Assembly: GCA_964517975.1 (NCBI GenBank)
Contig: CAZFDM010000301.1
Coordinates: forward strand, 1 to 53,736
Origin: an uncultured Syntrophaceae bacterium
GTDB lineage: Bacteria > Desulfobacterota > BSN033 > UBA1163
DNA length: 53,736 nt
Reading direction: 5' to 3'
This document shows positions 26,474 to 30,598 of the stretch, one piece after another. The notes below the pieces were generated by a model. The model was not told where the DNA came from and did not search any database. It saw only the letters and a program-made list of their open reading frames with translations. Position 1 is the first letter of the stretch. Every line of letters begins with the position of its first letter. A program made the translations under genes and the position numbers.

Positions 26474-27925
26474 ATGAAACTACCAGAGATTGACCTTTAC
26501 CTGATTGCTCCAGAGATTGTGGTGACCGCCTTTGGGTTTTTGGTGCTTCTGGTTGATGTGTTCACCCCCAGAGCAGAGAGAAAGAGTTACTTGGGAATTA
26601 TCTGTCTCATTGGAATTATTCTTGCCTTCCTTTTTACCCTTCCCCAGATTGGCTCTGTTAAAACCGGTTTTGGAGGAATGTTTACCTCAGATGGCTTTGC
26701 CCTGTTTTTCAAAGTCCTCTTTTTAATTATTGCCTTTTTAACTATTCTGATCTCGATGGGCTATGTGCAGAGAGAGGGAATAGAGTTTGGGGAATATTAT
26801 GCCTTAATCCTTTTTTCTACCCTTGGAATGATGCTGATGTCAGCAGGGACCCATCTGATCACCATCTTTCTGGGACTGGAGACCATGTCGATTTCAATCT
26901 ACATCCTGGCTGGAATGATGAGGGAGGATAAAAGATCAATTGAGGCTGCCATGAAGTATTTTCTACTGGGTGCCTTTGCAACAGGTTTTCTTCTCTATGG
27001 AATTGCCCTTCTTTATGGAGCGACCGGATCCCTTCATCTTAAAGAGGTGGGCTCCTACATCGCTTCTAAAAATTTGCTAAAGAACCCGATGCTGATGATG
27101 AGTCTGGTCTTTCTGACCATCGGTTTTGGATTCAAGATCGCCTCCGTCCCTTTCCATATGTGGACCCCAGATGTCTATGAAGGGGCCCCTACCTCGATCA
27201 CCGCCTTTATGGCCACAGGGGTGAAAGCAGCAGGCTTTTCAGCACTGGTCAGGGTCTTCTTTTCTGCGCTGCCAGGATTTCGGCCGGACTGGACTTCGAT
27301 CATGTGGCTGATTGCGGTGGCGACCATGACCGTGGGCAACATCGTTGCCATCTCCCAGGAAAACATTAAAAGGATGCTGGCCTATTCAAGCATTGCCCAT
27401 GCAGGGTATATCCTCGTAGCCTTCGTAGCAGGAAATAACTTAGGAACTTCGGGAATTCTCTTTTACCTTATGGCTTATGCCTTTATGAATATTGGGGCTT
27501 TTACCGTGGTCATTCTCCTCGGGAAAAAGGGGGAAGAGAATACTCTAATCACTGATTATGCAGGCATTGGATTCAAATATCCACTTCTTGCTGCCTCGAT
27601 GACCATCTTTCTTCTGTCCATGGCTGGGATCCCACCACTGGGCGGGTTCATGGCCAAGTTTTATGTCTTCAGTGCCGCCGTGGAATCAAAATTCTACTGG
27701 CTGGTTATCATTGGTGTGCTTAACAGTGCAGTCTCGGTTTATTACTATCTCAGAGTGACCGTTCTGATGTATTTCAGGGAATCGGAGCGGGAGATCACAG
27801 GACTCCAGTTTTCACCGGCTTCAGTGTTTGCACTGATCGTGGCGGTCGTTGGGACTCTCTATATGGGAATCTTTCCTGCCAATGTTCTTTCCTTCGCACA
27901 GAAGTCCATTGCAGGATTAATGTAG
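26474..27925 (+). CDS. nuoN: NADH-quinone oxidoreductase subunit N
   Basis: KYFLLG, PFHMWTPDVYEGAPT, KRMLAYSSIAH. Confidence 0.96.
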   Translation: MKLPEIDLYLIAPEIVVTAFGFLVLLVDVFTPRAERKSYLGIICLIGIILAFLFTLPQIGSVKTGFGGMFTSDGFALFFKVLFLIIAFLTILISMGYVQREGIEFGEYYALILFSTLGMMLMSAGTHLITIFLGLETMSISIYILAGMMREDKRSIEAAMKYFLLGAFATGFLLYGIALLYGATGSLHLKEVGSYIASKNLLKNPMLMMSLVFLTIGFGFKIASVPFHMWTPDVYEGAPTSITAFMATGVKAAGFSALVRVFFSALPGFRPDWTSIMWLIAVATMTVGNIVAISQENIKRMLAYSSIAHAGYILVAFVAGNNLGTSGILFYLMAYAFMNIGAFTVVILLGKKGEENTLITDYAGIGFKYPLLAASMTIFLLSMAGIPPLGGFMAKFYVFSAAVESKFYWLVIIGVLNSAVSVYYYLRVTVLMYFRESEREITGLQFSPASVFALIVAVVGTLYMGIFPANVLSFAQKSIAGLM

Positions 27926-28009
27926 CATTCGGATTTTTATAACCCCCGCCTTCGAAGCTAAGCATCCCATCAAGATAAGAGACAAATTTATTAAGATCGC
28001 ACCTTAAAA

Positions 28010-28028
28010 CCCCGTCCTGTGGACGGGG
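28010..28028. repeat. GC-rich palindrome, directly repeated at 29494-29512
   Basis: CCCCGTCC-TGT-GGACGGGG versus CCCCGCCC-TGT-GGGCAGGG, each preceded by TTAAA plus one base. Confidence 0.65.
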
Positions 28029-28143
28029 ATGAAAGGTGTGTATGCTGAAAGCAGAAAAAATAAACCAGATGCTGATATCATGAAAACGCTGTTCCTCCAA
28101 ATAGTGTAGAATATATCTTAAAACTCGAAAGGAGGAACGGAAA

Positions 28144-29229
28144 ATGGGACTTATTCTTGCTAAAACAGTAATTGGTATGGACATTGGTAAAAAGTATTCC
28201 TGGTGCGAAGCGGTTTCCACAGAGACCGGAGAGGTCCTCAAAGAGAGAAGGCTTCCCAATAGGAAGGAAGACTTTATTTCTTTCGTTGAAGCTCTTCCGA
28301 CCCCTATTCGCCTGGTCATGGAAGCCACCGGCAACTCTCCCTATCTTTACGAGTGCTGGGAAGACTTGGTCGAGGAGATCCAGCTCGCCCATCCCCTCAA
28401 GACCAAGGCGATTGCTTCGGCCAAGATCAAGACGGATCGAATCGATGATGGCATTCTGGCCCATTTGGGGATGGCCGATCTGGTCCCTCAAGCCTATTTT
28501 CCTCCCAGAGAGGTGAGGGATCTCAGAGAGATTCTGAGGCATCGGGCTTTCATGGTGGCCCTCCAAACGAGAGTCAAGAACAGGATCCATTCCTACCTTT
28601 GGAAATTGGGGATCGAGACAAAAGACACGGACCTCTTCGGGAAATCGGGTCTTTCGTGGCTCAAGGGGCTTCAAACCAGAGAACCTTACCGAGCTCTTCT
28701 TGACCAGGATCTTAAAATCTTGGAGGTTCTTCAACAAGAGATTAAGAATGCCACTAAGACGATTGATCGTCTTGCCAAAGAAGATCCGAGGGTGAAACTG
28801 ATCCTTACCATTAGAGGGATTGGGAAATACTCTGCCATGCTCATTTTGGCCGAGATCGGAGAGATTAACCGATTCCCTGACCCTAAGAAATTGGTTTCTT
28901 ACAGTGGTCTCTGCCCCTCGACCTTCCAGTCTGGAAGAGTCTCCTATCATGGAAAGATTACTAAACAAGGGTCGAAATGGTTGAGATGGATCCTGGTGGA
29001 GGCTGCCCAGAAGTACGGCAGAGCTCCTGGGAAGCTGGGCGATCTCTTCAGGAGAATTGAAAAGAAGAAGGGAAGAAAGACGGCAAAGGTGGCTGTGGCC
29101 AGACAGATATTGGTTAGCATCTATCATTGTCTGAACAAAGGTGTAACCTTTGAAGAAACCCCTAAGAGGGTGAAAAGAATTGAGTCCCAACACGCCCCAC
29201 TTGTTTCTGGGTGCTGTGACACCCCCTGA
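28144..29229 (+). CDS. IS110 DEDD recombinase/transposase
   Basis: GMDIGK, VMEATG, KTDRIDD, YSGLCPSTFQSG, AVAR; AGGAGG ribosome-binding site. Confidence 0.95.
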   Translation: MGLILAKTVIGMDIGKKYSWCEAVSTETGEVLKERRLPNRKEDFISFVEALPTPIRLVMEATGNSPYLYECWEDLVEEIQLAHPLKTKAIASAKIKTDRIDDGILAHLGMADLVPQAYFPPREVRDLREILRHRAFMVALQTRVKNRIHSYLWKLGIETKDTDLFGKSGLSWLKGLQTREPYRALLDQDLKILEVLQQEIKNATKTIDRLAKEDPRVKLILTIRGIGKYSAMLILAEIGEINRFPDPKKLVSYSGLCPSTFQSGRVSYHGKITKQGSKWLRWILVEAAQKYGRAPGKLGDLFRRIEKKKGRKTAKVAVARQILVSIYHCLNKGVTFEETPKRVKRIESQHAPLVSGCCDTP

Positions 29230-29296
29230 TGCTGATTGGCCGGTTGGGACTCGGATTGCTATCGTGTGCGAAGTTAGCACGCATAAGTGAATGAGT
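29182..29296 (+). ncRNA. Predicted bridge RNA / seekRNA of the IS1111 element (core, boundaries approximate)
   Basis: Two stem/internal-loop/hairpin modules whose loop strands match the target and donor sequences (see findings). Confidence 0.75.
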
Positions 29297-29435
29297 ATTC
29301 TCCTATAGAAGTATAACAAAACCATGTTCACTCTTTCTTTTGGAATAGGTGTTTTATGCTATTTCGAACTTGACACGGCGTTTTCATAAGTGAAATAAGT
29401 TCAGCATGACATGACGGTTAGGTTCTGGTCTTTTT

Positions 29436-29461
29436 GTCATCCCGAACTTGTTTCGGGATCT
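29436..29461 (-). repeat. REP-like palindrome, sister of the IS-interrupted copy
   Basis: Reverse complement AGATCCCGAAACAAGTTCGGGATGAC versus reconstituted AGATGCTGAAATAAGTTCAGCATGAC. Confidence 0.75.
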
Positions 29462-29650
29462 CAGTTTTGGGTTTTAGAATTTAGGTTTTAAAGCCCCGCC
29501 CTGTGGGCAGGGTTAAGAGATACCTATAATACTATCCCTCGCTACCCTGTCATTGACCCCATCGGTAGAACGGAAGTAAAAAATGGCTGAAGAAAAGGAG
29601 AAAGAAATCATGGTTATTTTACAGATGCCTCAGGACAAAAACAGGCCGAG

Positions 29651-29812
29651 TTGGGAGACGCGGAGGCTTACAACAATCGCGGGATTGCCTATTACTTTAA
29701 GAGAGAATTTGAAAAATCATTGAAAGACATTGAGAAAGCACAAAGTTTATCCTGTCAGATTAATCCCCAATTTCTTGATGAACTTCGCAAGGTTTCTGGG
29801 AGAAAGAGTTAA
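29651..29812 (+). pseudogene. TPR-protein C-terminal remnant
   Basis: DAEAYNNRGIAYYFKREFEKSLKDIEKA is one TPR; no in-frame ATG upstream before the stop at 29588. Confidence 0.65.
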
Positions 29813-29920
29813 AAAATTGAAAGCCTGATGGAAAGGTATAGAAATCAGGGAAATTGGAGCCATCCCTTGTGGGAAAGAACTACGGGATCAAATCTGCTTA
29901 TGGAGGCAAAGAATGGCTGA

Positions 29921-30598
29921 CTAAAATTCTTCCTCTAAATTTTTTCGTATCATTTTTCTTCCTATTTCATTAAAAAAGGAGGCCATCTCTTTTCCATTGA
30001 CCTCTCTTAACAATTTTAGCCCTTTTATATCCTCCAGTGGGTCGAGAAATCTTCCCTGAATAATATAATGGATTCCCTTCAAACCAAATTTCTTTTCAAC
30101 TTTCATGACGAGGTCGTCCATAGAGAAATGAACAAACTCCTTCAAAATAAAGTAAACATCCACATAATCTTTTATATCCCTTCTGTCAGAAAGGGTGAGT
30201 AATTTGTTGGTTAGGATATCTATAAGACTATCCACATTTATTCCTTCGATGGCCTTAAATATCTCAAGCCTTTTGAATGGGTAAGGAGTAAATTCTACTC
30301 TCAATAACCCGCTGTCTTCAAAACGAATAAAGAAGATCCGACGATCAAACTTCCTTTCAAAACTAAAGGTGTCTATTCTTGGGATCGATTTTAATAGGGA
30401 TGCAATGGTTTCTGTTCTCACTTCCTCACCCTCTGTGAAAAAATCAAGATCTTCTGATAAACGGTGTCCAAGATAAAAAGCGGAGAGGGCTGTGCCCCCT
30501 GTGAGATAGAAATGTTCAGAATCTTTCCATTTAGCAAACTCATGGAGAAAGTACTTTTGATGCTTTGTAAGAAAAGGATTATCCTTTATTTTTTTCAT
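29921..30598 (-). CDS. AbiEii/AbiGii nucleotidyltransferase toxin
   Basis: FYLTGGTAL..FYLGHRLSEDLDFF, NKL...R..IKDYVD; likely start MKKIKD at 30598. Confidence 0.85.
   Translation of the reverse strand: MKKIKDNPFLTKHQKYFLHEFAKWKDSEHFYLTGGTALSAFYLGHRLSEDLDFFTEGEEVRTETIASLLKSIPRIDTFSFERKFDRRIFFIRFEDSGLLRVEFTPYPFKRLEIFKAIEGINVDSLIDILTNKLLTLSDRRDIKDYVDVYFILKEFVHFSMDDLVMKVEKKFGLKGIHYIIQGRFLDPLEDIKGLKLLREVNGKEMASFFNEIGRKMIRKNLEEEF

Follow-up and report, generated by a model that had tools for sequence, protein, structure and literature searches.

An IS1111-type insertion sequence from an uncultured Syntrophaceae bacterium, with a probable bridge RNA that overlaps its recombinase gene

The stretch of DNA analysed here, 53,736 nucleotides from an uncultured Syntrophaceae bacterium and called the window below, carries an insertion sequence (IS) inserted in a REP-like hairpin. 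A preliminary description, made from the letters alone, had read the 3' part of this IS as a bridge RNA with guides for the target and for the ends of the element, with most of its target loop inside the recombinase gene. Does this part of the element encode a structured guide RNA, do its matches to the target and to the IS ends behave as guides among related elements, and what is to be made of the gene that runs into it? The strings and coordinates given in that description all proved correct when read directly in the sequence, and the reading as a bispecific guide RNA of the IS110/IS1111 kind is supported by covariation, among relatives, of the stems, the target guides and the 3' donor guide. 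We conclude with considerable confidence that 28075-29392 is an active-looking IS110-family IS of the IS1111 type, whose 3' part (approximately 29182-29296) encodes a bridge RNA (seekRNA).

The insertion sequence and its target

The recombinase combines an N-terminal DEDD/RuvC-like domain (PF01548, DEDD_Tnp_IS110, E = 2.3e-19) with a C-terminal Transposase_20 domain (PF02371, E = 1.9e-22), the architecture of the IS110 family. It scores 230.5 bits against the NCBIfam model NF033542, 'IS110 family RNA-guided transposase' (cut-off 140), and the closest solved structure is that of the IS621 transposase (8WT6, E = 5e-11). The nearest plasmid-borne relatives, at ∼43% identity, are annotated merely as 'IS110 family transposase', and a phylum-wide search found matches in just 6 of 401 genomes. 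Another IS110-family transposase gene, unrelated to that of the IS (25% identity), lies elsewhere in the genome of the window (contig C169:112-1101).

According to the texts of Durrant et al. (2024; PMC11208160) and Siddiquee et al. (2024; PMC11187229), the IS1111 group is told apart from the IS110 group by subterminal inverted repeats, non-coding ends and a protein motif. The repeats, which the first of these texts gives as 7-17 bp for IS1111, are here perfect over 10 bp and inset from the core by 5 bases on the left and 3 on the right (Table 1). The non-coding ends measure 69 nt on the left (28075-28143) and 163 nt on the right (29230-29392), so that the longer one lies downstream of the transposase gene, as does the guide RNA (29182-29296). 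The recombinase translation contains GLCPSTFQSG, which agrees with the C-terminal GL-P----S(T)G motif described as marking IS1111 transposases (text of PMC11187229).

The junctions of the window copy were set against seven other left ends, three other right ends and many empty sites from the same genome, a 305-contig assembly. These further ends of the same IS all lie at contig ends, indicating that the repeats broke the assembly. Because TGA is repeated at both junctions, the IS boundary can be slid by up to three bases (28073-29390 to 28076-29393). The preliminary description had accordingly named TGA as the repeated core, which is true of the window copy; in relatives with the same IS ends, however, the base that follows the target TG is G (L062, L064) or T (L066, L072). 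We therefore take the crossover core to be TG, with the A as first base of the IS left end, repeated in the window copy by coincidence. A dinucleotide core is also described for IS621 (text of PMC11208160), and ISEc11 is reported to insert after TG as well (text of PMC11187229).

Mapping of the other copies, a check proposed at the outset, placed 8/8 left and 4/4 right junctions in the same hairpin motif, and none was seen at an unrelated site. At each of the eight left junctions the flank terminates in AGATGCTG, and the next base is A. All four right flanks begin A(A/C)(T/C)AAGTTCAGCATGAC, three of them with ACCAAGTTCAGCATGAC and that of the window copy with AATAAGTTCAGCATGAC. Beyond the junctions the copies remain similar for 14 nt on the left and for 18 nt on the right, and they occupy three different larger repeat contexts, from which it follows that the target is a short REP-like hairpin. 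With both strands counted, a relaxed version of the target pattern occurs 72 times in the genome, and the majority of these sites are empty.

The surroundings of the window copy are themselves repetitive. The IS interrupts a composite repeat of ∼165-210 bp (27985-28074 plus 29393-29514) with several hairpins, two of the GC-rich CCCCG...CGGGG type and two of the REP family. At least 12 near-identical empty copies of this repeat occur elsewhere in the genome, and two other composite repeat families hold the same REP module; together these repeats look like a BIME/REPIN-like system. At contig C147:3530-3565 a copy of the IS lies in a repeat of another family. At the target position the remaining members of that family show GATGCCGA, and the occupied member shows GATGCTGA, the guide-matching variant.

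Table 1. Features of the insertion sequence, its target and its predicted RNA, in window coordinates
Feature	Position	Strand	Basis or remark
Left half of target REP-like hairpin	28066..28074	+	Ends in core TG (28073-28074); 8/8 left junctions
Whole IS	28075..29392	+	1,318 bp, one copy of the TG core counted; junctions compared with same-genome copies and relatives
Left subterminal inverted repeat ATGAAAACGC	28080..28089	+	Reverse complement of 29378-29387; kept in relatives
DEDD recombinase (transposase) gene, 361 aa	28144..29229	+	ORF; last 16 codons cross the first half of the RNA
Target-binding module	29182..29252	+	P1, P1b, internal loop and hairpin P2; covariation (n = 14), RNAalifold agrees
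Outer stem P1	GAGTCCCAAC 29182-29191 with GTTGGGACTC 29243-29252	+	Read in sequence; fold; covariation
Inner stem P1b	CGCCC 29193-29197 with GGCCG 29238-29242	+	Alignment structure; absent from the preliminary description
5' target guide ACTTGTTTC	29199..29207	+	Inside CDS; guide-versus-flank matrix
Hairpin P2	GGGTG 29209-29213 with CACCC 29220-29224	+	Covariation
3' target guide	29228..29234	+	Equals left-flank top strand through core TG, would pair with bottom strand; unique match in IS
5' donor guide TGCTATC	29257..29263	+	Complement of core G plus left end, 6/7; mismatch at left-end position 4
Hairpin P3, donor module	29264..29282; GTGTGC 29264-29269 with GCACGC 29277-29282	+	Compatible with alignment
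3' donor guide	29282..29289	+	Equals right end through core TG; matrix of 11 elements
GAG	29293..29295	+	May pair with CUC (29250-29252), closing the donor loop; alternative to the last three pairs of P1
TTGACA	29370..29375	+	Predicted -35 half of circle-junction promoter
Right subterminal inverted repeat GCGTTTTCAT	29378..29387	+	Conserved in relatives
Right half of target REP-like hairpin	29393..29411	+	Common to 4/4 right junctions up to 29411
Stop codon in P2 hairpin loop			11/14 aligned elements
Stop codon at start of 3' guide			2/14 aligned elements (window copy, L056)
Stop codon in P1			1/14 aligned elements (L048)

The predicted RNA and its guides

We aligned the RNA regions of 14 elements, drawn from contigs of genomes and metagenomes; their recombinases share 49-91% identity with that of the window. 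A structure of four helices (P1, P1b, P2 and P3) leaves 90.4% of cells paired, as compared with 28-44% when the partners are slid against each other; compensatory double changes occur at 10 pairs, and the covariation score was reached by none of 500 column shuffles (n = 14). The covariation is located in P1, P1b and P2. P3 is compatible with the alignment without support from covariation, because its pairs are almost invariant (five of six are so, or nearly so, across the 14 sequences). The fold of 29178-29300 gives both stems and both modules that had been described, with a minimum free energy of -44.5 kcal/mol (z = -3.0; 0/200 shuffles equally stable). A covariance model built from the 14 RNAs, as had also been suggested, matches the end of the CDS in nine further relatives outside the training set, with matches that reach down to ∼33% protein identity. 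A search of 27500-30000 against Rfam 15 (E up to 10) returned no family below E = 1 and three unrelated hits at E = 3-7; this result is uninformative on function, as no IS1111 bridge-RNA family was among the hits.

The outer stem, described at first as 10 bp long, is present, but its last three pairs are found in just 9-10 of the 14 relatives. The CUC of these pairs is joined to GAG in the RNAalifold consensus. Each of the three resulting pairs is found in 13 of the 14 rows, and all are invariant; the 14th sequence (L058) ends before them. Judging from the aligned sequences, CUC (29250-29252) may thus close the donor loop with GAG instead of ending P1. A longer closing stem of the donor loop, like CCCATYGC/GCGATGGG, was sought in the window copy and not found. 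In three relatives (L062, L064 and L065) the CCCATYGC that precedes the 5' donor guide can, by eye, pair with GCGATGGG ∼70 nt downstream, enclosing the donor loop and an extra hairpin.

Both strings assigned to the target in the preliminary description fit as claimed: GATGCTGA (29228-29235) is identical to the left flank (28068-28075), and ACTTGTTTC pairs with the right flank GAAATAAGT (29392-29400) apart from one G:T. The two sides of the internal loop hence match opposite strands of the target and overlap at the insertion point, which is the arrangement of a bridge RNA or seekRNA. Along the RNA the match to the top strand comes first and that to the bottom strand second; this is the reverse of the IS110 order and the same order as reported for IS1111 seekRNAs (text of PMC11187229).

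In a matrix comparison, the 3' side of each loop was set against all left flanks and the reverse complement of each 5' side against all right flanks. The longest string shared by guide and flank was 6-9 nt within a target class and 2-5 nt between classes, on both sides and for six classes. L056, from another metagenome (91% protein identity), shares its guides with the window copy and lies in a site to which both fit perfectly. Outside the alignment, the guides of L083, L051 and L084 (38-46% protein identity) match their own flanks by eye. There are exceptions. In the window copy (4 + 4 around the G:T) and in L072 a single mismatch splits the match, L060 matches its own left flank by 4 nt, and the flank of L065 shares 4-6 nt with all guides. 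The 5' guide of L057 has two mismatches adjoining the core, and in L066 and L067 the right flank is shifted by one base. The decayed L073 matches its own left flank by 3 nt and the guide of L057 by 8 nt; drift of its guide since the insertion, or a hybrid origin of the copy, may account for this. The metagenome contig of L073 also has a large insertion downstream of the RNA.

Within the genome of the window, none of the four right junctions fits the 5' target guide perfectly: there is one mismatch in each of three, and the G:T in the window copy. Four perfectly matching sites, in C155, C245 (twice) and C252, are empty. This speaks against the guide reading, but would fit a tolerance of mismatches together with the far greater number of sites of the one-mismatch variant.

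The second module matches the ends of the IS itself. On its 3' side, CATAAGTGA (29282-29290) is, as first reported, identical to the IS right end (29385-29393). The 3' donor guide, CATAAGTG, has the sequence of the right end up to and including the core, and within the close clade neither of them varies. Among distant relatives guide and right end change together, to ATAAGTG, ATAGGTG, AGAAAAGG, AGAGAA or ATGGAAG, and in a matrix of 11 elements from five or six classes they share 6-10 nt within a class and 3-6 nt between classes.

The 5' side is less clear. TGCTATC had been compared with the junction TGATATC, and the score of 6/7 holds; the reading as identity has given way to one as complement of the left end. 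The two readings score alike here because TGATATCA is palindromic. Since L062 and L051 fit as complement alone, the 5' donor guide is best read, from these sequences, as the complement of the left end. By eye, complementarity is 7/7 in L062 (left end ATAGC), 6/7 in L083 and 5/5 in L051, and it is poor in L048 and L057. Within the close clade the guide does not track the ATATC and ATAGC variants of the left end. Two classes have a mismatch to the guide at left-end position 4, a base that may just stay unpaired. The second loop thus matches both IS ends, and its 5' side, which the comparisons support in part, is the weaker half next to the covarying 3' side. In L057:2442-2510 (83% protein identity) the right end is tandemly duplicated at a distance of 47 nt; the outer copy alone precedes the guide-matching flank, which recalls the alternative ends reported for ISPpu9.

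How the donor match should be understood depends on where it lies and how it varies. In 11 elements it stands just 3' of the conserved hairpin P3, and over five or six classes it varies together with the right end; it comes without the subterminal inverted repeat that would be expected of a duplicated end, and its layout mirrors both the target loop and the donor loop published for IS621 (text of PMC11208160). These features weigh against the view that the first module alone is a guide, in the sense of a short seekRNA, and that the second is a DNA-level copy of the end, an alternative recombination site or a scaffold. That view draws on the text of PMC11187229, which gives target matches alone in the short RNA and describes target-derived donor flanks as shown to be needed, on the tandem right end of L057, from which it appears that end duplication does happen in the clade, and on the imperfect pairing of the 5' donor guide. 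We consider it improbable, and prefer to read the two modules as target-binding and donor-binding loops of one bispecific RNA.

A further concern is the abundance of REPs in this genome, in which the matches might come from a REP fragment inside the IS, or from chance likeness, with no guide function. Indeed, the loop consensus of the REP family is ACTTGTTTC, a string found again in many REPs. The exact match to a sister REP that was pointed out earlier does exist (∼29447-29455), but it is not a separate signal, as the neighbouring hairpin belongs to the same family in the opposite orientation. Relatives in unrelated targets carry different loop strings, however, and each fits its own flanks. 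Each of the four probe strings has a single + strand match in the IS interior (28090-29375), at its place in the RNA, and among 20,000 dinucleotide shuffles of 29150-29375 both target matches occurred together 4 times and all four matches never. We regard this origin of the matches as very unlikely, and retain the bridge RNA reading.

The direct basis of that reading consists in sequence matches, covariation of the stems, covariation of guides with flanks and ends, and consistent use of one target; production of the RNA, its binding to the protein and its role in directing recombination are what we infer by analogy with IS621, ISEc11 and similar elements. The first module would be the target-binding loop, with guides that meet at the TG core, and the second the donor-binding loop. 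In the latter, the 3' side (CAUAAGUG) would read the right end through the core and the 5' side (UGCUAUC) would complement the core G and the left end. The RNA-loaded recombinase would then join the circularised RE-LE junction and the REP, exchanging strands at TG.

A transcript from a promoter formed at the circle junction would supply both recombinase and RNA. On the circle, TTGACA would sit 18 nt upstream of TATCAT (28076-28081), itself preceded by TG-n, and a TTGAC before the right end is conserved in relatives; such a junction promoter would be in line with those described in the texts of PMC11208160 and PMC11187229. A promoter scan of 27950-29500 gave a single promoter-like site (29100-29127; 9 of 12) where 1.8 would be expected, hence nothing above chance, and an internal promoter for the RNA is therefore unsupported. 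The terminator scan of the same interval found no terminator after the RNA.

Overlap of the recombinase gene with the RNA

The recombinase ORF ends ...ESQHAPLVSGCCDTP, and its stop codon TGA (29227-29229) covers the first two bases of GATGCTGA, in agreement with the initial claim. This overlap had been flagged as unusual, and it is a real and conserved trait of the clade: the stop lies within the RNA in all 14 aligned close relatives and in six of eight distant intact ones (L034, L043, L084, L046, L083 and, with a partial ORF, L047). In the other two (L051, L086) it lies just upstream of the RNA, and in the decayed L070 it is inside the RNA too. With the stop so placed, the 5' target guide also encodes a variable C-terminal tail of the recombinase, and in 13 of the 14 aligned elements the entire guide is translated.

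Does this tail, rather than the RNA, explain the conservation? That the region is kept as a functional C-terminal tail or as a terminator of the recombinase gene is scarcely credible: although the ORF covers 29182-29229 and several relatives have QH(A/V)P in their tails, the stops fall at four different alignment columns, L048 and L083 stop at the start of P1 and have no tail, the guide-encoded residues vary freely while the base pairs are kept by compensatory changes, and no T-run follows the stems, where the terminator scan was empty. Given these freely varying residues and tail-less relatives, the tail seems to be incidental to the RNA and not a feature of the protein, and it is probably dispensable.

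The overlap is not a general trait of IS1111 elements, since in a copy of ISEc11 (CP057116.1), a member of the group studied by experiment, the two target-matching segments lie 113-148 nt past the stop, unlike in the window clade, where the ORF ends inside the RNA. No description of an overlap between bridge RNA and recombinase CDS was found in passages of the running text of PMC11208160, PMC11187229, PMC12288879 and PMC13604230. The structure search of Durrant et al. is described as including 50 bp of the CDS (text of PMC11208160).

It is conceivable, though on the whole we doubt it, that the overlap is functional and couples or rations the output of protein versus guide, or favours loading of the guide in cis. 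On this tentative reading, a ribosome translating to the stop would have to unfold P1, P1b and P2. One transcript would serve as mRNA or as guide and never as both at once, because excising the RNA from the message removes the stop codon. Loading in cis would be favoured by release of the protein within a few nucleotides of the site that it binds. A further consequence is that each retargeting of the 5' guide would rewrite the C-terminal tail of the recombinase. Whatever its role, the overlap concerns annotation pipelines that seek bridge RNAs solely in non-coding ends, and it possibly bears on the balance of protein and guide levels.

Comparison with known systems

The mechanism proposed here is already known, and part of the guide lying within the recombinase gene is the sole unusual feature. 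The element leaves that mechanism unchanged and adds a new, well-populated clade with one organisational twist. What the clade offers is a clean, naturally readable family of IS1111-type bridge RNAs in which all four guides can be assigned. Its at least six natural target specificities on one scaffold provide comparative material for a class of recombinases that is under engineering for genome insertion.

As described by Siddiquee et al. (2024; text of PMC11187229), the IS1111 elements ISEc11, ISPa11 and ISKpn4 share with the window IS a DEDD transposase, the GL-P----SG motif, subterminal inverted repeats, a guide RNA downstream of tnp, the strand order of the guides and the lack of any duplication beyond the core on insertion. 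ISPa11, like the window IS, targets a REP (text of PMC11187229). At the protein level the recombinase of ISEc11 is distant, with ∼23% identity to that of the window.

IS621, of the IS110 group (Durrant et al., 2024; text of PMC11208160; 8WT6-8WT9), has the same plan of two loops, each with two guides for opposite strands. It shares a dinucleotide core, a REP target and a circle-junction promoter, the last of these predicted in the window IS. By the same text, its RNA lies upstream of the gene rather than downstream, its guides run left-then-right where those of the window IS are reversed, its core is CT instead of TG, and it is without long subterminal repeats. A further difference from IS621 is that, in most relatives within the window clade, G is the sole core base covered by the 5' guides. 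ISPpu9 and ISPpu10 of Pseudomonas putida, IS110-family elements likened here by their description (text of PMC12288879), are also multi-copy and REP-specific. The same text reports circular intermediates for both, and for ISPpu9 a bridge RNA in a long 5' UTR together with extra small RNAs.
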